The notes below the pieces were generated by a model. That model searched no databases. It was not told where the DNA came from and saw only the letters and a program-made list of their open reading frames with translations. 64,000 nt of DNA, from positions 3,248 to 67,247 of the forward strand of contig CAYOXD010000002.1 in the NCBI GenBank assembly GCA_964407825.1, written 5' to 3'. The translations under genes and the position numbers were made by a program. The DNA comes from an uncultured Desulfobacterales bacterium (GTDB lineage: Bacteria > Desulfobacterota > Desulfobacteria > Desulfobacterales > JAFDDL01). Shown here in pieces: positions 151 to 63,003 of the stretch (positions within the stretch are counted from its first letter, which is position 1; each line of letters opens with the position of its first letter).

Positions 151-978
151 ATGTCACTCATCCGCGTGGAGGGGGTCGGTTTCTCCTATGGCCAGAAGCC
201 GATTCTGAAGGATATCGGTTTTCGGGTGGAAAAGGCTGAGGTACTTTGCCTGTTGGGGCCGAACGGGTGCGGCAAGACGACGCTTCTGGACTGTATCCTG
301 GGGCTCCATCCACTGCAATCGGGCCGTATTACCCTGAACGGGGTGTCCACGGCCGGGATCCGGCCTGCCACCCTGGCCAAGTCCGTCTCCTACGTGCCCC
401 AGGGCCATGAACGGACCTTTCCCTACAGGGTGATGGAAATCGTCATGATGGGGCGGGCGGCGTATACGGGGTTATTCAGCGGGCCCAAACTGGCGGATGA
501 AAAGATAGCGGAGGAGTCCCTGGCCTTGGTCGGCATCGGACATCTCAGGGACAGGCCCTATACGCGGTTGAGCGGCGGGGAAGGGCAGCTGGTCCTGATT
601 GCAAGGGCCCTGGCGCAGCGGACGCCGGTGGTGGTCATGGATGAGCCCACGGCGCACCTGGATTTTAAAAATGAGCTGCTGGTACTGGAGACCATCGGCA
701 GGCTCGTGAGGGAACGGAACATCGCCGTGGTGATGGCGACCCATTTTCCCAATCATGCTTTTTTTTTTGAAAACAGCGGTGTGCGAACACGGGTGGCCAT
801 GTTGAAGGAAGCCCGCATCCTCGAAATCGGAGAACCTGGCAGGGTCCTGCGCGAGGATCTGATCGAGACCCTCTACGGGATAGAGGCGTCCATCGTCTCC
901 CTGGACGGGGGCGCCAGCACATCGAGAAAGCAGGTAATTCCCATCCGGACGGTTCCGCCCGCGTCGGAAGGGGCTTAG
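151..978 (+). CDS. ABC transporter ATP-binding protein, iron-siderophore/cobalamin (FecE/BtuD-like) type
   Basis: Walker A GPNGCGKTT, signature LSGGEGQ and Walker B VVVMDEPTAHLD are present. The internal Met at 151 (MSLIRVEG...) is preferred over the track start at 46, which would overlap the permease. Confidence 0.85.
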   Translation: MSLIRVEGVGFSYGQKPILKDIGFRVEKAEVLCLLGPNGCGKTTLLDCILGLHPLQSGRITLNGVSTAGIRPATLAKSVSYVPQGHERTFPYRVMEIVMMGRAAYTGLFSGPKLADEKIAEESLALVGIGHLRDRPYTRLSGGEGQLVLIARALAQRTPVVVMDEPTAHLDFKNELLVLETIGRLVRERNIAVVMATHFPNHAFFFENSGVRTRVAMLKEARILEIGEPGRVLREDLIETLYGIEASIVSLDGGASTSRKQVIPIRTVPPASEGA

Positions 979-1111
979 ATTTTCGGTGAACGGCCTTCCA
1001 CGGCACCTCACCGAATCGCTGGAGCTTAGGCGGCAGCTCTCGGACATCCGGAGTGAAAGAGAGACGGACGTGATAACATCAGGATCAAAGCAAGGGCGGG
1101 GAGGTGTTCCC

Positions 1112-2218: not shown

Positions 2219-2268
2219 TATCCGGATTCCATCGAGCCGCCGGGACCGCCTGGTGGGGGAGTAAGATC

Positions 2269-3015
2269 ATGAAATGCTTAGTGGCAATCGATGATACCGA
2301 TAATTTGGAAAGTGTCGGGACGGGGGAATTGGCATCCCTGCTGTCTGAAAGCGTTTCCGCCAGGGGTTGGGGCCAGGCGGGGCATGTGACCCGGCATCAG
2401 ATGCTGGTTCACCCGGACATTCCCTATACCTCCCACAACAGCGCCATGTGTTTCCCGGCAGAGATGGAAAGGGACTGTATGGAGGCGTTCGTGGCCTATG
2501 CCATGGACTTTCTGCGGCAGGAGAGCGCCTCGGGGTCGGATCCGGGGTTGTGCGTCGTCGCCATCGAACGGCTTGCCGAGCCGGCGGCGCTGATCACTTT
2601 CGGCCGGGAGGCCAAGCGCAAGGTCCTTCAAAAATCCGATGCCTACGAGCTCGCCAGGCGACTGGACGTCCATCTCTCGGAGCATGGGGGCACGGGGCAA
2701 GGGGTCATCGGCGCCCTGGCCGCCGTAGGGCTCCGGATGACCGGAAATGACGGGCGGTTCAAGGGGCACGTCAAGATCGAGGCTGCCGATAGGATTGCCA
2801 CCCCGGCTGAAATAAAGCACCAGAGCCACGTGCGAGTGGTTCAAAGCGCCGATGGGCAGGTGCTGGCGGAGAGCGACAGGATACGACTGGGCAACAAGGT
2901 GAAAGCCGTCCTGCTCGATGGCAGATCCACCCTGCTGGTCTGCAGGACGGACACGAACGTAAATGACACGGTGCGGTGGGAAACCTGCAGCAAACAGTTC
3001 CTGCGCAGCTATTGA
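2269..3015 (+). CDS. Conserved hypothetical protein; N-terminal MKCLVAIDDTDN motif reminiscent of the TiaS-type kinase (TCKD) domain
   Basis: A 248-aa ORF with no competing frame. The IDDTD motif near the N-terminus is recalled from archaeal TiaS. The rest of the protein is not recognisable. Confidence 0.45.
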   Translation: MKCLVAIDDTDNLESVGTGELASLLSESVSARGWGQAGHVTRHQMLVHPDIPYTSHNSAMCFPAEMERDCMEAFVAYAMDFLRQESASGSDPGLCVVAIERLAEPAALITFGREAKRKVLQKSDAYELARRLDVHLSEHGGTGQGVIGALAAVGLRMTGNDGRFKGHVKIEAADRIATPAEIKHQSHVRVVQSADGQVLAESDRIRLGNKVKAVLLDGRSTLLVCRTDTNVNDTVRWETCSKQFLRSY

Positions 3016-3030
3016 AGAAGGGATCGTTCC

Positions 3031-3234
3031 ATGTCCCCATGGCTGATCAATGAGAACGGAGAGAAACACTTCGCCGGCGGCACCGCGGACTGGGCCCTGG
3101 CGGCTGCGGCAGCCCAACGTTGCAACGGTTTTGTCCCGGACGACGAGGACGAGCAGGTCAGCGACGAACCGCGCTCCTGCTATAACTGCCGATACAGGCG
3201 CTGGCAGCCGGATGGTATCCTGTGTCTGAAATGA
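3031..3234 (+). CDS. Small Cys-rich hypothetical protein (67 aa)
   Basis: The ORF starts 16 nt after the upstream gene. It has an acidic middle ([10 protein letters not shown]) and a C-terminal [16 protein letters not shown] cysteine cluster. Confidence 0.4.
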
Positions 3235-3298
3235 CAGGAAGGAGCGTTGGCGGCCCTGCCGGAGGCACTCCCAGATTCTTTACCGAGGAGCTGACAGA

Positions 3299-4522
3299 AT
3301 GAAAGCCCGGGACTTTATCGATCTTGAAAACGAGTATGGCGCCCACAACTACCACCCCCTCGATGTGATTCTCAAAAGGGGGAAGGGCGTGTGGGTCTGG
3401 GATATCGAAGGTAAAAAATACCTCGATTGCCTGGCTGCCTATGGTGCCGTGAACCAGGGGCACTGCCACCCCGAGATCCTCAAGGCCTTGAAGGCCCAGG
3501 CCGAAAGGCTGACCATCACCTCCCGGGCCTTTCGAAACGACCAGCTGGGACCCTTTTACAGGGAACTGTGCCAGCTGACCCGTTCCCACAAGGCCTTGCC
3601 CATGAACAGCGGGGCCGAGGCCGTGGAGACCGTCATCAAGGCCGTAAGAAAATGGGGTTATCAGGTCAAGGGCATCCCGCCGGACCGGGCGGAGATCATC
3701 GTCTGCACCAACAATTTTCACGGCCGGACCATCGGCATCGTTGGGTTTTCAACGGATCCGGCGGCCCGTAACGGATTTGGCCCCTTCGCACCGGGCTTCA
3801 AGGTGATTCCCTTCGGAGATGCCGAGGCCTTGGAGGCCGCCATCACCCCTGAGACAGCCGGATTTCTGGTGGAACCCATCCAGGGGGAGGCAGGCGTCAT
3901 CCTTCCTCCGGCGGGATACTTCAAGGCCGTTCGGGAAATCTGCACCAGCCAACGGGTGGTATTGATTTTGGACGAAATCCAAACCGGCCTGGGAAGGACG
4001 GGCACACTGCTGGCCGAGGAGCATGAGGGGATCGAATCGGATCTGACTCTGGTGGGCAAAGCCCTCTCCGGCGGTTTTTACCCCGTATCGGCCGTCCTTT
4101 CCAACCGGGAGGTCCTGGAGGTGCTGCAACCCGGGGAGCACGGCAGCACCTTCGGCGGAAACCCCCTGGCCTGCGCCGTGGCGCGGGCCGCCATGCGTGT
4201 TTTGAAGGAAGAGAACCTGGCTGCCAACGCCGCCGCCATGGGCATCCGCTTCCTCGACGGTCTGAGGCGGATACGCAGTCCCCATGTCAAGGAGGTGCGT
4301 GGCCGGGGGCTCATGATGGCCATGGAACTGGTGCCGGAGGCCGGCGGCGCCCGTCGATTCTGCGTCCACCTGGCAGAAAGGGGCATCCTGTGCAAGGAAA
4401 GCCATGACACCACCATCCGGTTCGCCCCGCCCCTCGTCATCAAAGAGGCGGAGGTGGACTGGGCCCTGGAGCGAATCGAGGCAGTCATGGCCTCCCCCCT
4501 TCGTTCTCGTCAGAAACAATAA
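3299..4522 (+). CDS. rocD: Ornithine--oxo-acid aminotransferase (class III PLP aminotransferase)
   Basis: The N-terminus [14 protein letters not shown]...[18 protein letters not shown] and the [11 protein letters not shown] and [10 protein letters not shown] motifs are typical of RocD/OAT. Confidence 0.8.
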
Positions 4523-4691
4523 ACTGAAGCCTTCAAAGAAGCGCCCTGAAACTTACTTCTAATCCTCAAGCCATAAAACACGGGACGTCAGGAATTTCCG
4601 GCAAAACATCCAGAGAGCCACCGCTCCGGGTCCATCCCCTGCCGCGGAGGGGCGGGGACAGAGCTCGCTTGTGCCAAACGCCGGCTGAGGT

Positions 4692-4726
4692 GTTTAAAGC
4701 CCGAACTGCTTTAAACCCTTTATAAT
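4692..4726 (+). promoter_or_regulatory. Putative operator plus -10 box upstream of the radical SAM gene
   Basis: A perfect 9-bp inverted repeat, GTTTAAAGC (4692-4700) / GCTTTAAAC (4708-4716), is followed by TATAAT at 4721-4726. This lies about 58 nt upstream of the ATG at 4784. Confidence 0.35.
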
Positions 4727-4783
4727 GGGCGACCGTTGTAGTAGGTATAGGTCCCGCTACTCCAACGTCACCATGGAGAAAAA

Positions 4784-6082
4784 ATGAAAATTCTGCTGGT
4801 CAACCCGCCCAACTGCGGCAGATCCATACCTGAGGAGCGGTATGGGATCGATACGATCAAGATGATTTTTCGGGGGGAACCCCTGGCCCTGGAGGTGATA
4901 GCCGGAAACCTGGAGGGCCACGAGGTGCGCATCTGTGACCTCAAGGCCGAGCCGGAGGAGAGCCTCGATCGCTGTCTGGTCCAATGGAAACCGGACGTGG
5001 TGGGCCTTACGGCCATGACCTGCGAGGCCAACACCCTGCTCGCTCTGGCCCGGGACATCAAGGAGCGCTCGGGCGCGATGATTGTGGCCGGCGGCTCCCA
5101 TGTCTCCTGCGACCCGGATTTTTTCAACAATGAGAGCATTGACTATCTGGTGGTGGGCATCGGAAAACTCAGCTTCAGGCTGTTGATTGACGCCCTGGCC
5201 CTAGGCGCGCCGGGGCAGGGCATCGACGGTGTGGTCAAGACCGATCCGTCCGGCCCCTTGCCCCTGATCCCTCGGGCCTTTTCCTCTGCGGACCTGGTGG
5301 ATGCGGCCGCCCCGCGCTATGACCTGGTGGAAAAGAACCGGGACCGGTACGTCATGAGCGGGGTGGGCGGAAAGATGGGATTTGTGGTCTCGGCCTATGG
5401 CTGCACCCACCGGTGTTCCTTTTGCGCCGTTCCCAACATGACCGGGGGGCGGTACCTGTCCCACAGCGTGGCGGCCGTGATCCGGGACATGCGGCTGCTG
5501 GCGTCCTTGCCCCTGATCCGCCTGGTGGACGCCAACACCTTCGGCAATATCCGTCTGGCGGAGGAATTGGCCGAGGCCCTGGCCGCATCGGGCCTGGAGC
5601 AGCGGATCGTAGCCGATGTGCGCGCGGATACGGTGGTGAGCCATCCCGATCTTTTCAGACGATGGAAGGCGGCCGGACTGGCCACGGTGGTCATCGGCTT
5701 CGAGGAGGTGAGCGACCGCCGGCTCGAGGAATATCACAAGAGATCGCGGGTGGAGACCCATGTGGCCGCCCTGGCCATACTGAAGGACCTGGGCATCCGG
5801 GTGATCGGAGATTTCATCGTGTCCCCGGACTACGGGGACGAGGACTTCGAGGCCCTTGTGGATTTCGTGAAATCAAACCCCATCGACCTGCCGCTGCCGG
5901 CCGTTTTAACCCCCATCCCCGGAACACCCCTTTACAAACAGGTCCGAGACAGGATAACGATACACGATTTGGACTATTACACGTTTACCAACGCCGTGCT
6001 CCCCACCCGGATGGCGGAGCGCCGCTTTTACGAAACCTATGCAGGAATCCTGAAGGATTTTACCGGACACATAAGGCATTAA
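4784..6082 (+). CDS. B12-binding-domain radical SAM protein (class B rSAM)
   Basis: The N-terminus has a Rossmann-like B12-binding pattern (KILLVNPP, VVGLTAMT, IVAGGSH). This is followed by the CxxxCxxC cluster AYGCTHRCSFCAV. Confidence 0.85.
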   Translation: MKILLVNPPNCGRSIPEERYGIDTIKMIFRGEPLALEVIAGNLEGHEVRICDLKAEPEESLDRCLVQWKPDVVGLTAMTCEANTLLALARDIKERSGAMIVAGGSHVSCDPDFFNNESIDYLVVGIGKLSFRLLIDALALGAPGQGIDGVVKTDPSGPLPLIPRAFSSADLVDAAAPRYDLVEKNRDRYVMSGVGGKMGFVVSAYGCTHRCSFCAVPNMTGGRYLSHSVAAVIRDMRLLASLPLIRLVDANTFGNIRLAEELAEALAASGLEQRIVADVRADTVVSHPDLFRRWKAAGLATVVIGFEEVSDRRLEEYHKRSRVETHVAALAILKDLGIRVIGDFIVSPDYGDEDFEALVDFVKSNPIDLPLPAVLTPIPGTPLYKQVRDRITIHDLDYYTFTNAVLPTRMAERRFYETYAGILKDFTGHIRH

Positions 6083-10511: not shown

Positions 10512-10903
10512 CAATTGTGGTGGAGGGGACGCTGACTTACTGCAAACCAGTCTCCAACCTCGCACGCCTCGTAACTATCCGCTATTAAATAACGAAATTC
10601 CGTTCTACAAGATTTCCCGCCAACCGGACCAGAGAAGCCTAATTCTACCTTGATTTCCAGTTACCGGACGAGGGTGATGGGTTTGCAAAAAAACCGGATA
10701 CCTCTTGAAACAAAAAAAAACAATCAAGCCTCTCAGCTTGTTGGACGGCGGTTCGATTCCCAGAAGCGGAATTTAATTCCCGGCCCGCCACGAGGTAGCT
10801 CCGCTCAAAACCCGATACATATGCGTCTGACAGATAAACGGGTGTATAACTCTTATCGATCCTATCTGACTGATATTAAGGGACATATATCCGTTGCTTG
10901 CAC

Positions 10904-11989
10904 TTAATCCGACCAACTGTAAAAGACCTTGAGTCTATTTCCGTGGGAATTCGGCAGTAGATTATCGTGTTGCAAACGCCCTACAACAATGCCTGGCGCG
11001 ACTTTAATTTTGCCGGCGAAGGCCTCTATAGGTGCCAGGGATCGACCATCCCATGACGAAACAAACCGGCGATATTCAGCAGGCGGGATCAGCTTGTCCC
11101 GGGCGAAGACATTGGCTTCTTCCTCTTTTTTATCGTCCAGGCCATTGCCTTCAATAAAAATTTCCTTGCGCCCATGTTTGATAATATGGCCCGCTTCATG
11201 AAAGAATGTGAACCAGAGATGATCGTTGCTCTTGTAACGCAGACTCAGCTGAATGACGGCTCTGTCACCTATCCACCGCGTTGCACCATAAACTCCGGTT
11301 TTTGGTAGCTCAGGAATAAATACCACAGCTACGCCGGCGGAAGCGCAAAGTTCAATCAATCGCTGTTGAAAGACATGAGGTGATTCAACAGTAAGCTCAC
11401 GAATGATATCGAGAACTTGTTGAAAACGGCTAAGCTTAAATGGAGAACATGGTCTCTGCCTGGCTTCTATTTCGCCCTTGCGCAACCAGGCGGAAACCGA
11501 CTCGGCACATGATTCGAAACGTTGCGTCTGGCGATAGGCTACCTGATAATCCTTCCAAACGGCTGTCCATTGTTCTGGGGAAGCCACTCCGAAAAACTGC
11601 AGCACCTCTTTAAGCTGAGACACATTGTCATTTTTTTTTGGAATCCACCCTAGCTTGATTAGCTGGACTAAAGGTACGTTTTTTAACCAATCCAAATGAG
11701 ATTGCAGACGCTTTTCTTCAGCAAGTCGAGTGCGGTCCTCCTGAAACTGTCTTTCCAGATTGTTCCAAAAGTGGGCCGGTCGACCAAGCGAACGTTCCAG
11801 CTTCAGGGCGCTCTCCGGGGTAATTGGTGATTTCCCCTTTATAATTTCATTAACCGTTTTTTTGGTCAGTCCGGTCCTGGCAGCCAGTTCAGCCTGGGTC
11901 ATGCCGAAGCCTTCAAGATAATCCTGAAGCACTTCACCGGGTGTAACCAAATAATCCGGAACATATTGATTTGACATGGTATCAGCCAT
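10904..11989 (-). CDS. HigA-type HTH antitoxin fused to an ImmA/IrrE-like zinc metallopeptidase domain
   Basis: The N-terminus carries an XRE-type HTH (QAELAARTGLTKKTVNEIIKGKSPITPESALKLERSLG). The C-terminus carries the HExxH motif FFHEAGHIIKHG. It overlaps the upstream toxin gene by 8 nt. Confidence 0.75.
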   Translation of the reverse strand: MADTMSNQYVPDYLVTPGEVLQDYLEGFGMTQAELAARTGLTKKTVNEIIKGKSPITPESALKLERSLGRPAHFWNNLERQFQEDRTRLAEEKRLQSHLDWLKNVPLVQLIKLGWIPKKNDNVSQLKEVLQFFGVASPEQWTAVWKDYQVAYRQTQRFESCAESVSAWLRKGEIEARQRPCSPFKLSRFQQVLDIIRELTVESPHVFQQRLIELCASAGVAVVFIPELPKTGVYGATRWIGDRAVIQLSLRYKSNDHLWFTFFHEAGHIIKHGRKEIFIEGNGLDDKKEEEANVFARDKLIPPAEYRRFVSSWDGRSLAPIEAFAGKIKVAPGIVVGRLQHDNLLPNSHGNRLKVFYSWSD

Positions 11990-12329
11990 GTGTATCCTCC
12001 ACTCCCAGTATTTTAATCACGGTTACCTGGGACCAGTCCAGCCCTCTGTCAGCACGTTTTGGAATCGGGTCATGATCAGGAACGAAAATAAGACGGTAAG
12101 GATAGTCGAGATCAACTGATAATTGGCCAGATCTTTTCCCTTCAGTCAACTCGTGGCACCGCCCGGGTGGACTTTTAGGCGGCCAGAAATCCATCAAGCT
12201 CCGAGCAGCTCTCAGCTCTTGCATGCGTACCCTGATTTTCCTGGCGCGAATCTTACCGTGAATTTTATCGAGCTGGGCACCTTCGTTAAACGATTTCTCG
12301 AGCTTCTTGTTTTTAAACGATATGTCCAT
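11982..12329 (-). CDS. HigB-like (RelE/ParE superfamily, 'killer protein') toxin
   Basis: A 115-aa protein matching the HigB pattern: FKNKKLEKSF...L(x)AA(x)SLMDF...CHELTEGKRSGQLSVDL...YRLIF...EDTH. The toxin-first order with a HigA partner is typical of higBA. Confidence 0.6.
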   Translation of the reverse strand: MDISFKNKKLEKSFNEGAQLDKIHGKIRARKIRVRMQELRAARSLMDFWPPKSPPGRCHELTEGKRSGQLSVDLDYPYRLIFVPDHDPIPKRADRGLDWSQVTVIKILGVEDTHG

Positions 12330-12352
12330 ACGAAATTTAAGTCAAGTTTTTA

Positions 12353-12369
12353 TTAACCCAATGGGTTAA
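12353..12369. promoter_or_regulatory. Putative HigA operator
   Basis: A perfect 8+1+8 palindrome, TTAACCCA-A-TGGGTTAA, lies 24-40 nt upstream of the higB-like ATG at 12329. Confidence 0.45.
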
Positions 12370-12502
12370 TTTTTTTGGTTGGCAAAATATGTCCAATACC
12401 TAAAACGATGGTTCTCGTCAAAAAAGGGTAAAGGCTTTTCATCCGGAGAGTGTTTGCATTTATTATGCGGTATCAATGATTCTTTGCCAATGTTTTTTGA
12501 AT

Positions 12503-13282
12503 TCACATGACCCCAAGAATCCAGCCCTCGACCTGGGCGACGTGGTATTCGCCGGGAAGCATCTCCGGCTTGAGAAATTTGCCGAGACTGCCATCAATAT
12601 CCACCTGCCGCAGCCAGGCGGAGGCCACATAGGCGTCGTGCTGGTCAGGTGTGCGGCCCTCCCGTGGAGTGCTCTTGCTCCACAGCGACGGGTAGACCTC
12701 CACCAGTGCGGACTTGCCCGCAGGAATTTCCCAGCCGTCGAAGGGCCAGAAGTGAACCCGGTCCTCAAGCTGATTGCGTAGATACCTCAGCCAGGGCAGT
12801 CCGGCATGAGTCGATTTGGCCACCGAACCAGGTACATCGAAATGAAAGACCGATTTGGCCCCGGCCCGCTCTTCGGTGATCCGCCGCCAGCGGGTATTGC
12901 CTGAACGTGCTTCACCGTTGCCACAGGTGCCGTCACGAATAAAATCAACATAGGTATTGTCCTCATCCGTGGGCCAGTGGCGCTGGAAATCATCCAGAAA
13001 GGCCAGCCAGTCCGGTAGCAGGTGATGGACCTCGAAATACCGGAGCGGAAAGGAAAAGCTATGGTCGATTCCGACAATGGTCGGCACTGCTTCGACCAAA
13101 CGCTCTGCCAGCCATTGGGCAATACCGCGCCGGGTCCAGTACTTGCGAGGGCTGGGTGGCGGCGTCACTTCTATCGGCGGGGCTTTCCGGTCGGCCAGGT
13201 AAACGCGCAAGCCCTTAAGGCTGGTCGTCGGCGTTTGGGCGCCGGAATAATCTATGCCTATGTAGCGGTCAAATAATTGCAA
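12503..13282 (-). CDS. Conserved hypothetical protein (259 aa)
   Basis: A clean ORF that begins 4 nt downstream of the stop of the RhuM C-terminal fragment. It has paired motifs IGIDYSGA and VGIDHSFSF plus C-terminal DQHDAY. I do not recognise a family with an assigned function. Confidence 0.5.
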   Translation of the reverse strand: MQLFDRYIGIDYSGAQTPTTSLKGLRVYLADRKAPPIEVTPPPSPRKYWTRRGIAQWLAERLVEAVPTIVGIDHSFSFPLRYFEVHHLLPDWLAFLDDFQRHWPTDEDNTYVDFIRDGTCGNGEARSGNTRWRRITEERAGAKSVFHFDVPGSVAKSTHAGLPWLRYLRNQLEDRVHFWPFDGWEIPAGKSALVEVYPSLWSKSTPREGRTPDQHDAYVASAWLRQVDIDGSLGKFLKPEMLPGEYHVAQVEGWILGVM

Positions 13283-13285
13283 ATT

Positions 13286-14336
13286 TCAATCTGTTTCCTT
13301 GTCTTTGCCTTCCTCCAGTTGCTTTATCACCCGGTCGAAGTCACTCTCAAATAGGCGGTCCTGAACGATGCGGTATTTTTCAAATTCACTCTCGGCATGC
13401 GCCCTGGCCAGCTTGGCCGCAGCCTTACCGGAATCCTGCAGGATCTCACGGTCGTCGAATTCCAGAAACATATCCAGGCGCTTGGCCCAGTCTTCCATGG
13501 TCATCGGGATTTTCCGTTTGGCCCGTTCTTCAGCCAAATCCAGATAGGCGTTAACAATTCGTCCTAACGATTCCAGCTCGTCCTTGACCAGATAGTTTTT
13601 AGCCACCGATACATTCGGTTTTCACAATCTTGCCGCCCGGAGCCTTTTCCCATGTGGTCAGCCCCATATTGGTTTTAGTACTGTCGGCTCGCTTCATAAT
13701 CAGCTCGGCAGCGGTGTTGCCGTGGACGGCAAAATGCAGTTTGTTCTGGACCTTTGCAAAGAACGCTTTGGTTGTCGGAGCGTCCTTGTTGTAGTCGACG
13801 CTGGTGGCATAAATGTCGGTGATTTTCTGGTAAAAGCGGCGCTCGCTGAGCCGTATTTCCCGGATCTCTTCAAGTAGGCGCTCGAAATAGTCCTCACCAA
13901 GAAAGGACCCGTTTTCCATGCGCTTTTTATCCAGCACATAGCCCTTGATGGCGAACTCGCGCAAGACCTGGGTGGCCCACTGCCGGAACTGGGTGGCCCG
14001 CACCGAGTTGACCCGGTAACCTAAGGAGATGATTGCATCCAGATTGTAGTGGTTGGTGGCGTAGGACTTGCCATCGGAGGCAGTTATCCGGAATTTCCGG
14101 ATAACTGAATCCTCATCCAATTCGCCGCTGGTAAAGATGTTTTTAAGGTGCTCACTGACTGTGCGCACGTCCACCGCAAACAGCGCGGCCATCAACTTCT
14201 GAGACAGCCAGATGGTCTCACTCTCATACCGGGCCTCGATGCTCTGTTCACCCGCCTGCCCGGTAAAGATCAGAAACTCGGCTGTACTATTGCGTATCAG
14301 CTGTTTTCCTTTGTCCTTATCCTGTTTCATGATCAA
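13286..14336 (-). pseudogene. RhuM-family gene split by a frameshift (245-aa and 106-aa ORFs)
   Basis: The N-terminal ORF (FRITASDGKSYATNHYNLDAIISLGYRVNSVRATQFRQWAT) and the C-terminal ORF (AKNYLVKDELESLGRIVNAYLD...FESDFDR) are contiguous parts of one RhuM-type protein. The frames switch within GTGAAAACCGAAT (13613-13625, minus strand). Confidence 0.7.
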
Positions 14337-14648
14337 TCCTCAGGTATCAAATTCCGTGCGGGTTATGCTCGCAAAATACACATTGAGAATATCCCAAAAA
14401 ATTCGATCTTGTCAAAAACCGATAACTTACCAACATACATCCGGGCCGACTTTACAGATATGTAATAAATGGTTTCGCCGACGACCAGCGCACATTTTGT
14501 CCAGTTATTGCATCAATTCCTAAAACACAAAGCCTCATCAATCTGAACCTCTAAAAAGCAGGCCGACACTCTGGAAGCCTGCCTTTAAACCGGGGAGTGA
14601 AAATTAAGTTAATTCTATTTCTTTTTTGTGCGACGCACAAAAAATTCG

Positions 14649-14684
14649 AAAAAAAAGTCCGGTTTCAACACCGGGCGCGGACTT
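14649..14684 (-). terminator. Intrinsic-terminator-like hairpin followed by T8 (minus strand)
   Basis: The minus strand reads AAGTCCG-N16-CGGACTT followed by TTTTTTTT. An alternative inner stem is CCGGT/ACCGG. Confidence 0.4.
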
Positions 14685-14776
14685 AACACAACCATCAAAA
14701 AATCGGTTTCGCGTAACTCCCTGTTTGGCAAGGATATAGCTTTCCGGACGCGAATCGGACCAGGTCCGAACAAAAC

Positions 14777-14835
14777 GGAGAATCAGGGGCCAAACAGAGA
14801 ATAAAGGGGCCGAAAATGGGAAAAATCAGGTGACC
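14777..14835. repeat. Degenerate tandem repeats of about 18-22 bp (about 3 units)
   Basis: The units are GGAGAATCAGGGGCCAAAC, AGAGAATAAAGGGGCCGAAAAT and GGGAAAAATCAGGTGACC. A fourth partial unit, GGAGAATTG, follows. Confidence 0.4.
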
Positions 14836-14886
14836 GGAGAATTGTTTTGAAAGATGGTAAATACGCCAAAGGCCTTGAATATAATG

Positions 14887-14935
14887 GCAAAAAGAAAACC
14901 CGTCCCTCCGGAGAATGATCCCGGAGAAACGGGTT
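14887..14935 (-). terminator. ssrA intrinsic terminator
   Basis: On the minus strand the stem AACCCGT..CTCCGG / CCGGAG..ACGGGTT is followed by TTTTCTTTTT. It starts 13 nt after the tmRNA CCA end. Confidence 0.65.
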
Positions 14936-14948
14936 ATCAACTGTATAA

Positions 14949-15301
14949 TGGTGGAGGCGCCGGGAGTTGAACCCGGGTCCGGAAATATTCCGCGCAGGCT
15001 TCTACATACTTATCCCGGGTTTTGGATTTCGCTCATCGGGTCTCTCCCGGGCGGGATGCCCGATTCGCTAGCCTGCCGAAAGATCCCCGATTCCTTGGCA
15101 GGCCTTGGGAATCGGTTATCCCACTAGTCGACGCCCTTTGCCAGGTGCGCGGGAAAAACCTGGCAGGACGGTAGCCTTAAGCGGCTACAGCGTAAGCATA
15201 ATCGTCTGCGATTATATTTAATTCCAACCGATTTTACGAGCCGGCAGGAACTCGGTATGCAACCTGAACTTCTTTATCCCCGTCGAAGCCGTTTCGCCCC
15301 C
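14949..15301 (-). ncRNA. ssrA: tmRNA (transfer-messenger RNA)
   Basis: The 5' end GGGGGCGAAACGGCUUCGACGGGG pairs with the 3' end CGCCUCCACCA, including the G3:U wobble. The T-arm is CCGGGUUCAACUCCCGG. The internal tag ORF GCA GAC GAT TAT GCT TAC GCT GTA GCC GCT TAA (15177-15209) encodes ADDYAYAVAA. smpB is adjacent. Confidence 0.92.
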
Positions 15302-57028: not shown

Positions 57029-57517
57029 CTATCCCGGCAGGCTCAGCCGTTGGTGCGCCTTTCCCAGGACGCCTTGATAGTACCCCAGGATGTAGTCCAA
57101 ATAGACGATTTGGAGTTTAACAGCAAAGATCCCCCGATCAGCGTAAGCCAGAAGAGCGGCGTCCTTGGCCAGGGGAAGCCCGTCGAGAAATCCGTTGTCG
57201 AGACAGCGCTTGATCTTTCTGGACAGAGCATGGGTACGGAAGTGATCGCGCCCACCGGTTTCCCAGATGTCGTACAGGTGACACAGCAGACACACGGCGG
57301 CACCCTTGCGCAGCAGATCCGGGTCCAGGCCTATCCGGTCCCCGAGGTTCCGTGGCATTTCGCACCGAAGATACTTGAATGCATCGAATTCATTTAAAAA
57401 TAAGCTGCCGCCAAATCCGCCGTAGGTCGTAACGGCCCTATTGTACAGGTTCAGAATGATGCGGGCCGCGTGCATCGCCTCATGAAAGTTTTCTTCGGTA
57501 ATGTGATGGGTTTTCAT
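57029..57517 (-). CDS. Hypothetical protein (162 aa)
   Basis: A clean ORF in a lower-GC stretch. No motif recognised. Confidence 0.4.
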   Translation of the reverse strand: MKTHHITEENFHEAMHAARIILNLYNRAVTTYGGFGGSLFLNEFDAFKYLRCEMPRNLGDRIGLDPDLLRKGAAVCLLCHLYDIWETGGRDHFRTHALSRKIKRCLDNGFLDGLPLAKDAALLAYADRGIFAVKLQIVYLDYILGYYQGVLGKAHQRLSLPG

Positions 57518-57731
57518 TTGCCTCTTCTATCTGTCCGGGGCAGATAATTTAACGTAGCGGGTTTGGATCTGATAAGGGGAATAAGCAAGATACATGCCTC
57601 ATTGAAGAATTCGCGCGATTTCACGAATTCGTCAATGGCGACAGGGGAATGCGGCACCGCTGTCCCATGGACAATGATCAGGCTGTGCCGCAGACTGTTA
57701 CATAAAAGCTACACCTGATGTATACATTTGA

Positions 57732-58418
57732 TTACAGGATAGTCGTGCCGACGGCTGGATCTTTCTCTCCCTGCAGAATACCCAGCATGGCCTTGGCCAG
57801 CAGGCGATTCCTGTGGTGAGGGAGATAGCGTCTGTCCACGCGTTTTCGCTCCGGGTCGAAGCAGTTGACAAAGGCCCGGCGAATAGGGCTGCCATAAACA
57901 TTGACCATCGCTATGGGGAGGTCGCCGGGATTGCCGGTTCTATGGATACCCTCATTCAGGGGATGGGTTTCATCCGTTTCGCCGGGGAGCAGGAGGCGGT
58001 GGCGAGGTTCGCCGAGCCGGGCGATTCCCGCCTTGGAACCGTCATCCAGGCGCTCATATGTCACGATGTCGAGGGGGCCGAACAAGGTTCCGATAAGCCC
58101 CCATGAGCTGTGATCGTGAATGGGTGTATACTCCCCAGGGGCAAACAGAAACAGGCGCAGGGAAAAGCGACGGCCACGGTCCAGATACAGCAGCACCTCG
58201 CAATCGAAGAGCGCCGGTCTGGAAAGATCCGGATAGCGCTCTGCGCGGGACATTCGACCGATTATATCCACAAAAAGGGCCTCGTCCGCCAGCAGCCCGG
58301 GCAGGGCTTCGCGGATAAAGTCCATTCTGGCCTGCTTTCCCTTCAGTTGATCCATCACCGAGGACCAGGCGCGGCACGCGTCCATGAGTTTCGAGGCAGT
58401 TGATGTGTTGGACCCCAT
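57732..58418 (-). CDS. Cupin-fold protein resembling the cysteine dioxygenase type I family
   Basis: YTPIHDHSSWGLIG and a later HPLNEGIHR give a His-rich two-motif cupin pattern, as in CDO/3-mercaptopropionate dioxygenase-like proteins. Confidence 0.55.
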   Translation of the reverse strand: MGSNTSTASKLMDACRAWSSVMDQLKGKQARMDFIREALPGLLADEALFVDIIGRMSRAERYPDLSRPALFDCEVLLYLDRGRRFSLRLFLFAPGEYTPIHDHSSWGLIGTLFGPLDIVTYERLDDGSKAGIARLGEPRHRLLLPGETDETHPLNEGIHRTGNPGDLPIAMVNVYGSPIRRAFVNCFDPERKRVDRRYLPHHRNRLLAKAMLGILQGEKDPAVGTTIL

Positions 58419-58438
58419 GGCAGCTCCTTTGGTCTTTT

Positions 58439-60370
58439 TTACTTGGACATTTCCAGCCTCACGTACTGCTCGTAATAGGCGGCGCCAGAGCCCATATCCG
58501 TGCAGACGGCGTCAATGAGTTGATTGACCCCACCCCCCAGTCCCATCCAGTCCCCCCGGCGGTAGAGCACCACCTGGGGATGGAGATCCGCCAACGACAC
58601 CGGTTGTACCCGCAGTCGGCCAAGGGGGGAAACGAGCCAGACCGGACCGTCATCGTCGATTTCCCGCCATGCCGGGCATTCAGGCGACAACCATACAGTG
58701 GGAAACTTCGGATGGCTCTCGGGCAGGAGTTGTGAGTGCATGGCATCCCGACGCACAAGGCTCAGCAGCCGCAGGGGGAACCCCGGCGGCGGGGCCGGTT
58801 CCTCATGCAGCACCAGGGGAAGGGCGTAGCGTCCATCGGCATGGTCGAAAACCAGTCCCTCGTAGGCAACCGCCGGCCGGCTGGCCCGGACCCATCCCCT
58901 TTGCCGCAACCGGTTCAGATCCGTGTCCAATACAGGTGCCTCCAGGGCCCGGGCAAGGCAGCTTTCGGCATCCGGCAGCATCACGGGCGGGTCCAGCCTT
59001 CGGCCGATTTCCGATACGATCCAGTGATCGCCCCTCGCCTCGGGCGGTGGATCCACCACCTTCGCCGCATACAGGACGAATTCATGGAGATAGGAACCGA
59101 CGATGTCCTCCTGTTCCAGCATCAGGGTGCAGGGGAGCACCAGGTCCGCTGCCCGGGCGGTATCGGTCATGAAGGCATCCACCACCACCTTGAAGTCAAC
59201 CGACTGGAAAAATTGTCGCACACCGCGGCTGTCCGGCGCCTGGTTGACGATGTTGGTGCCGTTGACCCAAATCATTCGGACAGGCGGTCGGGTCCTGTCA
59301 GCCCCGTCCTGCGCTATCATCGGCTTTCGGAGGGTGTGCTGCGAACCGCTTGCCCCGGGATCCAGCCAGGAGAGGTCCAGATTCCGGAAGGCATGGTGAT
59401 GAAAGTAGCTGCCGCCGCCGGGCCGTCCCACGTTACCGGAACAGAAGGCAAGGGCATTGATAAAACGCACATTTTCGCCGCCGTAGCGATACCGTTGCAG
59501 GCCGGCGCCCACCAGTGTGGCTGTGGGACCGGGGGCCGCATAGTACTCGGAGAGGGTTTCGATATCGCTGGACGACACCCCGGATAAGTCGCAAAGCCGA
59601 TCCTCGCCGTATGCGCCGATGGTCTGGACAAAGCTCTTCACGTGCCGGGCCCTTTCGAGCAAGGATGCCGGAACCTGTCCAGCGGAAAACAGCCGTTTGG
59701 TTACCGCGGCCGCCAGAAAGCGATCCGTACCCGGCCGGATGCGGATCGTATCGTCGGAAAGCGACCGATTGAAATCCCCCCCGGGGGAGATGCTCAGCAC
59801 CCGGGCGCCCCGGCGGCGCGCCCGGCGTATCAGCAGGGCCGTATGGACCGAACTCCGGAGGGGGTCCTTTCCCCAGTTGACGATTCTGTCGCTCTCCAAC
59901 AGAAGCTGGATATCGGAATTGCACCGGGAGCCGAAATCCTTGATATAGGCCATGTAGCCGGCCGCATCGCACAGGGATCCATGGGTACGGGAGCTGCCAA
60001 GTTTTCGAAAAAAGAGGGTAGGGGTCTGCCGCAGGACCCCCTTGCCGCCTTGGCCATGGAGGTGCAAAATGGCGCCCGGGGTTTTGCGAAGTGCCTGTAT
60101 CTTCTCCGCGCAGAGGGCCAGGGCCTCCTCCCAGCAGATAGCCTTCCAATTTTTTCCCCTGCGGATCATGGGGGTTTGGATCCGCGCGGGACTCTGCAGC
60201 CGTTGCAGATGGCTATTGATTTTGTTACAGGCGAATCCGGCGGTTATCGGATGATCCGGCGCTCCCTTCAGCCGCGGATTTCCAGATCTGTCCAACTCCA
60301 CCAGCAGGGCGCAAGAATCCGGACAATCCATGGTACAGGCCGTGTAAGATGCATTCTGGTGCCCATCCAT
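58439..60370 (-). CDS. Molybdopterin (bis-MGD) oxidoreductase family protein, apparently cytoplasmic
   Basis: The N-terminal Fe-S motif is CTMDCPDSC...GFACNK. MopB-like core motifs (THGSLCDAAG, ISPGGD) and a C-terminal molybdopterin-binding barrel are present. No twin-arginine signal is seen. The internal Met at 60370 is preceded by GAGGGAG. Confidence 0.75.
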   Translation of the reverse strand: MDGHQNASYTACTMDCPDSCALLVELDRSGNPRLKGAPDHPITAGFACNKINSHLQRLQSPARIQTPMIRRGKNWKAICWEEALALCAEKIQALRKTPGAILHLHGQGGKGVLRQTPTLFFRKLGSSRTHGSLCDAAGYMAYIKDFGSRCNSDIQLLLESDRIVNWGKDPLRSSVHTALLIRRARRRGARVLSISPGGDFNRSLSDDTIRIRPGTDRFLAAAVTKRLFSAGQVPASLLERARHVKSFVQTIGAYGEDRLCDLSGVSSSDIETLSEYYAAPGPTATLVGAGLQRYRYGGENVRFINALAFCSGNVGRPGGGSYFHHHAFRNLDLSWLDPGASGSQHTLRKPMIAQDGADRTRPPVRMIWVNGTNIVNQAPDSRGVRQFFQSVDFKVVVDAFMTDTARAADLVLPCTLMLEQEDIVGSYLHEFVLYAAKVVDPPPEARGDHWIVSEIGRRLDPPVMLPDAESCLARALEAPVLDTDLNRLRQRGWVRASRPAVAYEGLVFDHADGRYALPLVLHEEPAPPPGFPLRLLSLVRRDAMHSQLLPESHPKFPTVWLSPECPAWREIDDDGPVWLVSPLGRLRVQPVSLADLHPQVVLYRRGDWMGLGGGVNQLIDAVCTDMGSGAAYYEQYVRLEMSK

Positions 60371-60556
60371 CAAGGACGCTCCCTCTCTCTGTGTCGGGCT
60401 TTTGGGATCCACTCGCGTTTCGGCCACAAAGCCGCCCTCAGCTCCATGCCCTCTACCTATAGAAATACGATGTTCGACGGGTATTTGCAAAATGTATTGA
60501 AAATCCTCCCTGGAAAATATAAAAAAGTCTTTTTGCATAGGAAGAGGAAAGGGGAG

Positions 60557-60823
60557 ATGGAGAAACTACTGGATGAGTTGAAGCACAAGGTCGTCGAAAC
60601 CCTCAATCTGGGCGATATCAAACCCGAGGACATCGACGGGGACGAACAGCTGGTGGGAGGAAGGCTGGGAATCGATTCCATCGATATCCTGGAACTGGTG
60701 ATGATGATTGAAAAGACCTATGGGCTCAAAATCGACAATAAGGAAATGGGCGCGAAGGTTTTTGCCAATATGAGAGCCATGGCCGGATATATTCAGGAAA
60801 ATGTTCCGGAGCTTTCCCCTTGA
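60557..60823 (+). CDS. Acyl carrier protein
   Basis: An 88-aa protein with LGIDSIDILELV as the phosphopantetheine Ser motif. The ATG is preceded by GAGGAAAGGGGAG, and the stop overlaps the start of the KS gene. Confidence 0.8.
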   Translation: MEKLLDELKHKVVETLNLGDIKPEDIDGDEQLVGGRLGIDSIDILELVMMIEKTYGLKIDNKEMGAKVFANMRAMAGYIQENVPELSP

Positions 60824-63003
60824 CTGAAAGGCGGGTCATCATCGCCGGCATGGGCGCCCTCACCCCTGCCGGCGCCGGTGTGGAGGCTCTGGTTCGCTGG
60901 ATGCACCGGGGGGACCGGGCGATTGCAGATCCCACGGTTTTCGCCGTTGCACCGGAGAATCGAATGCCGGTCGGTGAGGTCCCCCGGTGGGACGGACTCG
61001 GCGGCGCCTATCCCCGAACCCATCAGCTCGCGCTGGCTGCAGCCCTGGAGGCAATGTCGGGAACCTCACAACCGCCCGATGCGATAGTGATTGGCGTTAC
61101 CACCGGCGGGATTCTTACCACCGAGGAAAATTTCAAGGCGGACGTCAGCGACCCGACCGCCTACCGATATCATGGTGCGGGAACGGTCGCAGAGCTGATC
61201 GCAGAGCAGCTCTGCTGCAGGGGCGCCGCCATCACGGTGTCCAATGCCTGCTCTTCCGGTGCGGTTGCCATCAAGATCGCCCTCGACATGCTGCGCAGCG
61301 GCCTGGCCAGCCGGGTTTTGGCAGGAGGGGCGGACAGCCTCTGCCGGCTGACCTACTTCGGATTTAAATCACTCCAGTTGGTGGATCCAAAGGGAGCGCG
61401 GCCCTTTGATCTGGATCGCCAGGGAATGTCGGTGGGGGAGGGGGCCGCCATGCTCCTTCTGGAGCGGGACGTCGAGAACAGATCCGATAGGACAGCGGTG
61501 CTCGGCGGTGGACTTTCATGCGATGCTTTTCACCCCGCCAAACCCCATCCCGAAGGGCAGGGGGCCCTGGCCGCCATGAGGGCGGCTCTGAGGGATGCGG
61601 GCATTCCCCCGAAGGATATTGATTACATCAATCTGCACGGCACCGGTACGCAGGACAACGATCTTTCAGAGGCGAGGGCCGTTCGCAGGCTATTCGGCGA
61701 GCGCCTGCCGCCGCTTTCCTCCGTAAAGGGGGCTCTGGGTCATTCCCTGGCCGCAGCGGGAGCCATTGAAGCGCTCATTGGCGCCATCGCCATTTCCCAC
61801 GGCCTGATGCCTGCCAATACCGGCTGCACGGTGCCGGACCCGGAGCTGGGCTTAAGCCCCTTGCCGGCGCCGCAAAGGTCACCCACGGCCACGGTCCTTT
61901 CCAATTCCATCGGCTTTGGTGGCAACAATGCCGCCCTGGTGATCGGTAGAACCGCTGGCCGCACCCAAACCTCGAGCCCATCCAGCAAGCCCTTTACGGT
62001 GGCAGGCATAGCGTGCCTCACCGGGTACGGGAGTCTTGACAATACCCTTGCCCGCCTCGCCTCTGGTTCTGCAATCTCCCCCCCGGAACGCCTTTCGCTG
62101 GCGGATATTTCCGCCGCGCTTCCTGCTGCCCAGGTGCGGCGGCTCAAACGGCTGCCGCGCATGGCTTTGGCCCTTTCCAGCGCCGTTCGCCAGAATGCGG
62201 GGCTCGATTGCCCTCCTGAATCCGTCTTCTGGGGCACCGGGTGGGGGCCCCTCTCGGAAACCTATGACTTTTTAACGAAGCTCCAGGAATCCGATGAAAA
62301 ATTCACCAGCCCCACGGACTTCATCGGATCGGTACACAACGCGCCGGCAGGGCAGGTTGCCATGCTCCTTGGCGCCGCCGGTGCCAACGTCACCCTGACC
62401 GGCGGAGACTATTCCTTCGAGCAGGCACTGCTGAGCGCCCAGGTCCTTGCTCCAGAATCCGATGCCCCTGTACTCGTAATCGGCGCCGACGAGTTTCATG
62501 AAACGTTTTCTCCCCTGCTGGATCCCTCGGTGGTCGATGCAGATACCGCCTCCGACGGCGGAGGGGCCCTTTACCTGACCCGTTCGGTAAACAATCGAGA
62601 GACAACAAACTGGATTCGTTTGGAATATTTTGCAACCCTGGGGGATGACCCTGCCGCCATCTCCTCGCTGGTGGAAGCCCTCAACGCAACAGGCCCCCTC
62701 GCGGAACGATTTTGCGCTGTCATGGCAGGCATTCCGGCCGGCTACCGGAAGCAGGGCGAGAGCCAACTCCGCGCGTTTCTTTCCCTATCGGGGGTCACCA
62801 GCCCCGTCATCGATTATCGGGAACTTACCGGCGAATTCGCTTCGGCCAGTGCGGTGGCTGTATCCCTTGCCGCGGCATTTTGCCGCAACGGCGAAATCCC
62901 CGCCGGCTTCGCCGGCTGTTCCGGGCAAACCATTCCGTTGCACAACAAGGAAATTCTCGTCCTCGGACTCGGCAAATCCATCACAGCCGTCTGCCTGGGT
63001 TGA
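60820..63003 (+). CDS. Fused beta-ketoacyl synthase (KS, Cys-His-His) plus chain-length-factor-like KS-N domain
   Basis: The N-terminal half carries VSNACSSGAVAI, NLHGTGTQDND and KGALGHSLAAAG. The C-terminal half carries SPTDFIGSVHNAPAGQVAML and has no catalytic Cys at the equivalent position (TLTGGDYSFEQAL). The TTG start overlaps the ACP stop as TTGA. Confidence 0.85.
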   Translation: MTERRVIIAGMGALTPAGAGVEALVRWMHRGDRAIADPTVFAVAPENRMPVGEVPRWDGLGGAYPRTHQLALAAALEAMSGTSQPPDAIVIGVTTGGILTTEENFKADVSDPTAYRYHGAGTVAELIAEQLCCRGAAITVSNACSSGAVAIKIALDMLRSGLASRVLAGGADSLCRLTYFGFKSLQLVDPKGARPFDLDRQGMSVGEGAAMLLLERDVENRSDRTAVLGGGLSCDAFHPAKPHPEGQGALAAMRAALRDAGIPPKDIDYINLHGTGTQDNDLSEARAVRRLFGERLPPLSSVKGALGHSLAAAGAIEALIGAIAISHGLMPANTGCTVPDPELGLSPLPAPQRSPTATVLSNSIGFGGNNAALVIGRTAGRTQTSSPSSKPFTVAGIACLTGYGSLDNTLARLASGSAISPPERLSLADISAALPAAQVRRLKRLPRMALALSSAVRQNAGLDCPPESVFWGTGWGPLSETYDFLTKLQESDEKFTSPTDFIGSVHNAPAGQVAMLLGAAGANVTLTGGDYSFEQALLSAQVLAPESDAPVLVIGADEFHETFSPLLDPSVVDADTASDGGGALYLTRSVNNRETTNWIRLEYFATLGDDPAAISSLVEALNATGPLAERFCAVMAGIPAGYRKQGESQLRAFLSLSGVTSPVIDYRELTGEFASASAVAVSLAAAFCRNGEIPAGFAGCSGQTIPLHNKEILVLGLGKSITAVCLG

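Follow-up and report, generated by a model that had tools for sequence, protein, structure and literature searches.

A molybdopterin oxidoreductase and a thiol dioxygenase-like cupin form a predicted conserved gene module in Desulfobacterota

Organization of the locus

We analysed a 64,000-nucleotide stretch (hereafter the window) of contig CAYOXD010000002.1 from an uncultured Desulfobacterales bacterium, in which a gene for a molybdopterin oxidoreductase (MopB) is directly followed by a gene for a cupin related to bacterial thiol dioxygenases. According to the list of open reading frames (ORFs) of the window, the minus strand between 57029 and 60538 is filled by three ORFs (Table 1). The MopB ORF (58439-60538) would encode 699 aa if counted from its first ATG, but a 643-aa product is favoured because a GAGGGAG ribosome-binding site lies 5' of the ATG at 60370 and because homologues begin only a few residues (within ~10) before the first cysteine. 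The cupin gene comes next across an operon-type junction, and the third ORF, for a 162-aa protein, lies 214 nt 3' of the cupin stop codon. On the opposite strand, genes for an acyl carrier protein (ACP) and a ketosynthase–chain length factor (KS-CLF) fusion are divergent from MopB, the ACP gene starting with an ATG at 60557. No Fe-S or membrane partner gene is located beside MopB in the window, and none of the partner types found at other loci (thioredoxin reductase (TrxR)-like, DUF362, DUF2284 and others, see below) is present within the whole 64 kb.

A preliminary description of this DNA had reported a 643-aa MopB protein with a Cx3Cx3C...C motif and no twin-arginine (Tat) signal, a cupin 20 nt further on with a His pattern like that of cysteine dioxygenase (CDO), a 186-bp divergent region shared with the ACP gene, and no visible Fe-S or membrane partner subunit. 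All of these sequence statements hold on re-checking.

Table 1 Features of the window around the MopB–cupin pair, and groups of related loci
Feature	Position	Strand	Basis or content
MopB-superfamily Mo/W-bis(pyranopterin guanine dinucleotide) enzyme, 643 aa, predicted cytoplasmic	58439-60370	-	Pfam/NCBIfam, FdhF/FdhH alignment, family conservation
Spacer from MopB stop to cupin start, 20 nt; operon junction	58419-58438	-	AAAGGAG ribosome-binding site
Cupin, 228 aa, homologous to bacterial thiol dioxygenases (MDO/CDO type)	57732-58418	-	PDB sequence matches, AF2 model, Foldseek, orthologue conservation
Putative control region of the 162-aa gene	57584-57637	-	Inverted repeat and sigma-54-like element
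All-alpha orphan protein, 162 aa, adjoining the module without belonging to it	57029-57517	-	
Divergent intergenic region MopB/ACP gene, 186 bp	60371-60556	.	
ACP and KS-CLF fusion pair	60557-63003	+	KS-CLF 727 aa
Cupin-less MopB clade			L056, L057, L058, L062, L063, L065, L074 (also L075, L081)
Cupin loci without MopB, linked to a gamma-glutamyltranspeptidase-like gene			L143, L150, L153, L156, L157 (metagenome)

Conservation of the MopB–cupin pair

A homologue search returned 1439 MopB matches at E <= 0.001 among the 8000 candidates scored, hundreds of them ~56% identical to the window protein. The named sources, Desulfococcus multivorans, Desulforhabdus amnigena, Desulfonema ishimotonii and the Olavius symbiont Delta 3, all belong to the Desulfobacterota. 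MopB relatives were found in 233 species-representative genomes by a pattern-based scan, and the loci retained from these genomes came without exception (80/80) from Desulfobacterales, Syntrophobacterales, Desulfomonilia or Syntrophales. Neighbouring genes were scored at 83 MopB-anchored genome loci plus two duplicate places (tblastn) and, from the other side, at 80 metagenome loci obtained from a scan with an alignment of the cupin.

The cupin gene lies directly downstream of MopB on the same strand in 73 of the 85 MopB loci (tblastn and hidden Markov model search), and three of the 12 loci without it end too early downstream. When the MopB clade typically accompanied by the cupin is taken alone, the cupin follows in 68 of the 70 loci having room for it. 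Conversely, of the 62 cupin-anchored metagenome loci that extend far enough upstream, 54 have MopB directly before the cupin. In D. multivorans and D. amnigena, the genes next after MopB encode proteins of 226 aa and 219 aa, respectively, that align as cupin orthologues. Over 71 loci the gap between the two genes has a median of 38 nt and is 30 nt or less, overlaps included, in 30; several of the overlaps measure 1-11 nt. Pairwise identities among the MopB proteins and among the cupins are correlated (Pearson 0.88). Judged from gene order and sequence, MopB and the cupin are a conserved module that is widespread in Desulfobacterota, and they are predicted to be co-transcribed neighbours that are inherited together.

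The preliminary description had proposed co-occurrence across genomes as a check and had recognised no described pathway in the pairing. The co-occurrence was seen in both directions, and no published description of the MopB–cupin pairing was found by a full-text literature search. The 'MOLY' cluster of sulfur disproportionators was considered and set aside as a separate system, which is described as probably lying outside the cell and as having A/B subunits together with a chaperone of the TorD type.

Active-site signatures of MopB

The MopB protein matched the Pfam families Molybdopterin (PF00384, 131 bits) and Molybdop_Fe4S4 (PF04879, 27 bits), with a weak match to Molydop_binding (PF01568, 24 bits) just below the cut-off. 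Its N-terminus, MDGHQNASYTAC, carries the cysteines C12-x3-C16-x3-C20 that are completed by C48, predicting one N-terminal [4Fe-4S] cluster; no twin-arginine motif was seen when this region was read directly. The MopB profile matched more than 50 solved MopB structures, the closest of which are cytoplasmic FdhF-type formate dehydrogenases (E 1e-26 in a single-sequence search and 1e-42 to 1e-47 with a 15-sequence profile). By these matches the protein is a member of the MopB/DMSO reductase superfamily.

Alignment, the means by which the preliminary description had suggested looking for the Mo ligand, places C134 on the Sec140/Cys metal ligand of FdhH/FdhF. This residue is invariant in 84/84 aligned sequences (the window and 83 loci) and sits in the invariant motif GSLC134D135AAGY139, so that an invariant Asp (D135) directly follows the predicted ligand where formate dehydrogenase (Fdh) has its catalytic His. 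A family-specific GGGSYFH324HH326 stands in place of the 'RGQ' segment of Fdh/Nap and contains no Arg; across the family the segment after GGG reads SYFH(H/L)HS or SYF(H/Q)LHS. The family has a mean column identity of 68%, with the cluster Cys and the dinucleotide-binding motifs kept, and because of this high conservation MopB is likely to be a functional Mo or W enzyme.

Among characterised enzymes MopB most resembles FdhF/FdhH (1aa6, 7qv7, 7bkb; Nap/Nas/Fdh branch), with which it shares the four-domain architecture, the size class, a predicted cytoplasmic location, a single N-terminal [4Fe-4S] cluster and a Cys at the Sec/Cys ligand position. It differs from them in the spacing of the cluster motif (Cx3Cx3C instead of Cx2Cx3C), in the Asp that replaces the catalytic His, in SYF(H/Q)LHS at the place of the Arg333 segment 'RGQNN', and in its near-obligatory cupin neighbour. 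That MopB is simply a known enzyme, either a formate dehydrogenase of the H type or an assimilatory nitrate reductase whose partners are encoded elsewhere, is very unlikely. Such an identity would agree with the best PDB and NCBIfam similarity being to FdhF-type proteins, with the presence of NasC and NasA among the NCBIfam matches, and with the cytoplasmic, single-cluster form of FdhF and NarB. However, all NCBIfam models fell well short of their cut-offs. The best match, formate dehydrogenase alpha (TIGR01591), reached 165 bits against a cut-off of 666, and NasC and NasA reached 107 and 92 bits against 1100 and 1000, respectively. An Fdh identity was rejected on this low score and on the replacement of both the catalytic His and Arg333. 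DmsA/YnfE and TorA/BisC identities were likewise rejected, given the low scores (dmsA_ynfE, 120 bits against 778; bisC_fam, 101 against 1018), the missing RR motif, the Cys at the ligand position and the presence of the cluster motif. Database names for the MopB relatives go no further than 'molybdopterin-dependent oxidoreductase' or 'anaerobic selenocysteine-containing dehydrogenase'.

The cupin and its relation to thiol dioxygenases

Sequence searches of the PDB with the cupin returned 6xb9, 4qma and 3uss at E values of 1e-14 to 5e-8, the matches comprising the Azotobacter and Pseudomonas 3-mercaptopropionate dioxygenases (MDO), a Ralstonia CDO homologue and mercaptosuccinate dioxygenase (MSDO). 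An AlphaFold2 (AF2) model built from a 62-sequence alignment had a mean predicted local distance difference test (pLDDT) score of 92.4, and its best Foldseek matches were MDO, MSDO and then mammalian CDO (best fold E 6e-13). In this model the cupin barrel is flanked by an N-terminal three-helix extension and a C-terminal helix. None of the close cupin relatives listed (P0121-P0183) has a precomputed Pfam domain, unlike the CDO_I-positive outgroup.

Residues H101-x-H103...H159 of the cupin align with the iron ligands H89/H91/H142 of Pseudomonas MDO (PaMDO), so that both the sequence and the model predict a three-His iron facial triad in a cupin fold, as in thiol dioxygenases. Y175 corresponds to Y159 of PaMDO, R181 to R168, and E74 to Q62, the position held by Arg60 in CDO. 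All of E74, H101, D102, H103, W106, H159, Y175 and R181 are invariant in the 69 MopB-linked cupin orthologues (69/69). Of the residues that anchor the substrate carboxylate in MDO, Arg168 has an invariant counterpart in R181, and position 62 is occupied by an invariant Glu that is found in neither CDO nor MDO. The second-sphere Ser-His-Tyr triad of thiol dioxygenases is not retained as a whole. In the window protein N173 and M171 take the places of H157 and S155 of PaMDO. Across the 69 orthologues the His position reads S42/G8/N7/H7/C3/T1, the His being replaced in 62, and the Ser position reads M42/T12/Q9/S6, while the triad Tyr is kept as Y175 in all 69. As judged from these alignments, the cupin has the predicted metal site of a thiol dioxygenase and probably one of its carboxylate anchors, its second-sphere triad is degraded, and a new invariant acidic residue (E74) stands where CDO and MDO select their substrate.

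The cupin shares its fold, the three-His site, the Tyr and the Arg with the 'Gln-type' MDO enzymes (PaMDO, 3uss/4tlf; Azotobacter MDO, 6xb9) and with MSDO (8vni). It differs from them in sequence (24-29% identity), in the change of Gln62 to an invariant Glu, in the triad His157/Ser155 being usually Ser/Asn/Gly and Met, in its extra N- and C-terminal helices, in its anaerobic hosts and in its genetic tie to MopB. Both proteins of the pair come from known superfamilies, and by their altered active-site signatures each is assigned to a distinct subfamily.

Loci without the cupin and variable neighbours

Nine MopB loci without the cupin form a single neighbour-joining clade that is sister to the cupin type. 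They include seven of the nine cupin-less loci with room downstream, plus two truncated ones. Members of this clade carry the motifs LCDxAGIAA and YF(N/S)ISS (YFNILS in two), and those of the cupin-type clade carry LCD[AS]AG[YF]xA and YF[HQ]LHS. Three motif positions beside the predicted metal ligand of MopB track the presence of the cupin. Five members of the cupin-less clade have, in the slot after MopB, a gene for a 148-aa protein with a cyclic-nucleotide-binding domain, itself a beta-barrel.

The slot after the cupin is occupied by different genes in different lineages. Counted over about 160 loci, it holds a TrxR paralogue with a CVEC redox motif in 43 loci (240 bits with TIGR01292, whose cut-off is 343), a DUF362 protein with two [4Fe-4S] motifs in 9, and a DUF2284 protein in 6; a small PF01910 (MTH1187-type) protein is encoded 5' of MopB in 21. 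Clustering of the neighbourhoods revealed no universal Fe-S or membrane partner, and the neighbours (TrxR-like, DUF362-ferredoxin, DUF2284, PF01910, FtsH and peptidase M1) are only lineage-specific. Because interchangeable redox carriers appear in the downstream slot, gene order suggests that MopB depends on a soluble electron partner. Flanking genes differ from locus to locus and are of housekeeping character (ftsH, pepN, hemCD, pgsA, argBD), with no catabolic island. In D. multivorans (L002, 9375-10004) a PF03692 CxxCxxCC zinc/iron-chelating protein gene abuts or overlaps the MopB start codon, as does the FtsH gene in five Desulforhabdus/Syntrophobacteraceae loci (L004, 8034-9995).

At cupin loci that lack MopB, an ORF resembling gamma-glutamyltranspeptidase (GGT) follows or overlaps the cupin in five of eight (Table 1). 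One of these ORFs was checked against Pfam and matched PF01019 with 480 bits, and tblastn recovered three of the five loci as well as L160, a locus on a short contig. No obvious signal peptide was seen in the GGT-like ORF. Two of the MopB-less loci (L143, L150) have the PF01910 protein upstream, and two others (L153, L156) have a cyclophilin-like protein downstream. Taken together, the TrxR-like and GGT companions suggest low-molecular-weight thiol chemistry.

The neighbourhoods also bear on the view that MopB and the cupin act on different substrates and have no more in common than their regulation as stress genes. MopB might then, for example, be a general reductase of S-/N-oxides or oxyanions and the cupin a thiol dioxygenase, both induced on exposure to oxygen. 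Housekeeping surroundings, a TrxR-like gene that is often in the same operon and the occasional occurrence of either gene alone would all be expected on this view. We nevertheless consider it unlikely, since the linkage (87-97% over four orders), combined with the motif match, exceeds what mere co-regulation would predict.

A more serious alternative, although still a doubtful one, is that the cupin is a non-oxygenase accessory subunit of MopB, serving in substrate presentation, metal or oxyanion selection or cofactor maturation, with its iron site repurposed for ligand binding under anoxia. The tight and often overlapping gene junctions are typical of subunits, and the presence of the cupin co-varies with MopB residues beside the metal ligand. 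The loss of the triad His and Ser from most orthologues, the anaerobic hosts, and the shortness of MopB (643 aa), which has no further partner gene adjoining it in the window, are equally in keeping with such a role, and in the model the N-terminal three-helix and C-terminal helix extensions could form an interface. On the other hand, the invariance of the MDO substrate-binding set (three His, Tyr and Arg) points to an active site for a small molecule, five loci have the cupin beside GGT and no MopB, so that an independent function is possible, and no fusions are present among the top 120 matches listed for either protein. To our knowledge, moreover, the chaperones of MopB enzymes are all-alpha proteins of the TorD/NarJ type or FdhD, and never cupins.

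The ACP/KS-CLF genes

The KS-CLF fusion consists of a ketosynthase (KS) with its active-site Cys and a CLF-like half (PF13723). It belongs to a widespread Desulfobacterota family, and ACP plus KS-CLF form a conserved two-gene unit. In Desulfonema limicola (L086, 7737-11548) this unit is followed by a B12-radical-SAM gene, and in the metagenomic contig L087 (5701-16887) it lies inside an aryl-polyene-like cluster, in both cases without MopB or the cupin. The L087 cluster encodes an ApeP-like protein, KR, LolA, an ApeI-like dehydratase, two radical-SAM proteins, two KS, a thioesterase and PS-DH, and the NCBIfam assignments PRK09184 and PRK09185 fit the aryl-polyene-like picture. In the window and in L001, a metagenomic relative that is 79% identical, the ACP/KS-CLF unit stands alone.

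L001 is the only other locus in which ACP/KS-CLF lie beside MopB and the cupin, and it also has the flanking genes pgsA-tal-folK-dapF-argD-argB in common with the window. With tblastn, the unit was found at none of the remaining 82 MopB-anchored genome loci that were scored and at none of the 80 metagenome loci anchored on the cupin. Within the 186-bp divergent region, the block conserved with L001 is proximal to the ACP gene, and the MopB-proximal half is not conserved.

It is extremely unlikely, on this evidence, that the divergent ACP/KS-CLF operon makes an ACP-bound or thiol-containing intermediate for MopB and the cupin to tailor. The adjacency with a common intergenic region in the window, and the like arrangement in L001, are what speak for it; against it stand the absence of ACP/KS-CLF from the other anchored loci, the occurrence of the ACP/KS-CLF unit elsewhere with other partners, and the restriction of intergenic conservation to the ACP side. 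A type II polyketide synthase or aryl-polyene-like tailoring cluster was rejected, as no conserved co-localisation was found outside L001. The preliminary description, which had hinted at such a link, had itself named a lack of synteny in relatives as the finding that would count against it, and this is what was found, L001 alone sharing the arrangement. Gene order across the relatives indicates that the acyl-carrier link is a local chance and that the neighbours are unrelated.

Beyond the ACP/KS-CLF genes, L001, the closest relative, encodes a YcaO-TPR protein, a heavy-metal P-type ATPase with an HMA chaperone, and a SprA-related protein (3616-5379 and 224-3600). The window ends before any counterpart of this YcaO-TPR/P-type ATPase region.

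The 162-aa gene and other window features

The preliminary description had listed the 162-aa protein as unknown, and indeed it has no Pfam or NCBIfam match. Its family comprises just 59 cluster representatives in 1.84 billion proteins and has no invariant residues. The AF2 model (pLDDT 94.4) is all-alpha, and no fold match to it was found in the PDB (best E 1.6). The gene lies beside MopB and the cupin only in L001 and is absent from all other MopB- or cupin-anchored loci. A third subunit of the module was therefore rejected as its identity, in view of this distribution, the tiny helical orphan family, the missing matches and the gene's own upstream region. The 162-aa gene appears, from its layout, to have its own promoter region and so to stand outside the module.

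The inverted repeat upstream of this gene, first noticed as GAATTCG-N10-CGAATTC at 57607-57630, is present with longer arms of 14 nt each (57600-57613 and 57624-57637; 93% complementary). It reads CATTGACGAATTCG-N10-CGAATTCTTCAATG (57600-57637) and lies directly upstream of a sigma-54-like -24/-12 element, AGGCAT-N5-TTGCT (57584-57599). A conserved operator was rejected as an explanation of the repeat, since only one arm is conserved in L001, the sole relative with the 162-aa gene. The sigma-54-like element is conserved in L001, and its position together with this conservation makes it a plausible candidate, although such matches are no commoner than chance in the window. A simple scan of the region, the 186-bp divergent region included, gave no sigma-70 sites, and terminators were at the level of shuffled sequence.

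Elsewhere in the window, the stretch 10900-15301 has a low GC content (0.51-0.53 compared with about 0.60) and lies beside a tmRNA gene (14949-15301, minus strand, 197 bits). Its ORFs, assigned by eye, encode an XRE/ImmA-IrrE-like protein of 361 aa, a RhuM-like protein of 245 aa and an unknown protein of 259 aa. The stretch looks like a small mobile island inserted at ssrA.

Discussion

We tentatively propose that MopB and the cupin constitute a self-contained cytoplasmic two-enzyme module acting on one small sulfur compound. This proposal draws its support from the linkage of the two genes, the coupling of the ligand-side motifs of MopB to the presence of the cupin, the conservation of the predicted active-site residues, the thiol-themed neighbours and the housekeeping context. 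The cupin would bind Fe(II) on His101, His103 and His159 and would accept a low-molecular-weight thiol, with the carboxylate of the substrate directed to Arg181 and probably its amine to the invariant Glu74; a cysteine-like thiol or one of the gamma-glutamyl/cysteinyl type would suit such a pocket. Where O2 is present, the cupin would turn the thiol into a sulfinate, like MDO and CDO. The Cys134-ligated Mo/W centre of MopB, wired to the single [4Fe-4S] cluster, would carry out a two-electron oxygen-atom transfer on the sulfur-oxy form, either oxidising the sulfinate (or released sulfite) with water to a sulfonate (or sulfate) or reducing an S-oxide back towards the thiol. Electrons would be exchanged with a soluble partner such as the TrxR-like flavoprotein, the DUF362 di-cluster ferredoxin protein or DUF2284, a partner that in the window organism would have to be encoded elsewhere. 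The role of the module is likely to be thiol/S-oxide housekeeping or oxygen defence, and not a catabolic pathway. Of the redox tailoring suggested in the preliminary description, the sulfur- or oxygen-related part fits the relatives of the cupin and the TrxR-like and GGT neighbours, whereas the part that linked it to ACP falls away.

Partial parallels to the proposed module exist among described systems. Like the BisC/TorZ-type S-oxide reductases and acetylene hydratase, MopB is predicted to be soluble and to work without a membrane or Fe-S partner subunit. BisC repairs S-oxides with electrons supplied by thioredoxin-like proteins or flavoproteins, which recalls the TrxR-like neighbour of the module. 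Acetylene hydratase, too, has a Cys ligand and a single [4Fe-4S] cluster, and its similarity to MopB is partial (profile score 88 bits); BisC and Tor enzymes have no Fe-S cluster and a Ser ligand; none of these enzymes has a cupin partner. A precedent for the proposed sequence of steps is offered by Variovorax paradoxus, in which a Mo-dependent oxidation of sulfite comes after the mercaptosuccinate dioxygenase step (PMC5373536). In the mercaptosuccinate pathway of strain B4, as in our proposal, the sulfur of a single organic thiol is processed first by a dioxygenase of the CDO family and then by a Mo enzyme. Unlike the situation in our hosts, however, that pathway is aerobic and catabolic, its Mo enzyme is termed only a putative molybdopterin oxidoreductase, and no Fe-S-containing MopB–cupin pair is described there (PMC5373536).

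Several observations weigh against a two-enzyme module. The genes are unlinked in 8 of the 62 cupin loci and in 2 of the 70 MopB loci, and no electron-partner gene lies next to the pair in the window. The Pfam model CDO_I (PF05995) does not match the cupin at E <= 0.01, and its only Pfam match is a weak one to PCO_ADO (19 bits against a cut-off of 27). The cupin may not be a dioxygenase at all, because the triad His and Ser are mostly lost and the CDO_I model is silent. Which way the MopB reaction runs, and which of the two steps comes first, are points that we only infer, and the conserved adjacency would fit a cupin that serves as an accessory or maturation subunit equally well. In addition, the hosts are regarded as strict anaerobes, which makes a first step that requires O2 awkward.

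This last difficulty would disappear if sulfur were oxygenated without O2, the cupin holding the thiol on its iron and MopB providing oxygen atoms from water and carrying off the electrons. Anaerobes often replace oxygenases by water-using Mo/W hydroxylases such as ethylbenzene dehydrogenase and dimethyl sulfide dehydrogenase. The products would be sulfinates or sulfonates, for example cysteine sulfinate, cysteate or compounds of the taurine type, or the reaction could run in reverse as a repair of over-oxidised thiols. Strict linkage in obligate anaerobes, the altered second-sphere residues of the cupin and the electron-carrier genes in the slot after it all agree with this scheme. It is nonetheless improbable in our estimation: the cooperation of a cupin with a MopB enzyme is without precedent and there is no sign of a complex, a need for such products in these genomes is without support, and MopB alone could in principle perform chemistry of this kind.

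Thiol dioxygenases are regarded as strictly O2-dependent enzymes of aerobes. The two-enzyme module that we propose places a distinct thiol dioxygenase-like subfamily, fixed beside a distinct Mo/W enzyme, in anaerobic sulfate-reducing and syntrophic lineages. The labels 'formate dehydrogenase' or 'selenocysteine-containing dehydrogenase' on these MopB genes are probably wrong, and the adjacency of ACP/KS-CLF in the lineage of the window should not be taken as a biosynthetic cluster. Knowledge of the substrate would extend, by one reaction, the cytoplasmic sulfur metabolism or the defence against oxygen and thiol stress in the dominant organisms of anoxic sediments, and a branch of the MopB superfamily that is so far uncharacterised would acquire a function. 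It would also show how second-sphere changes, from Gln or Arg to Glu and through loss of the triad His, retune the CDO scaffold. Should O2-independent S-oxygenation prove true, strict anaerobes would gain a route to sulfinates and sulfonates that has so far been credited only to O2-dependent enzymes.

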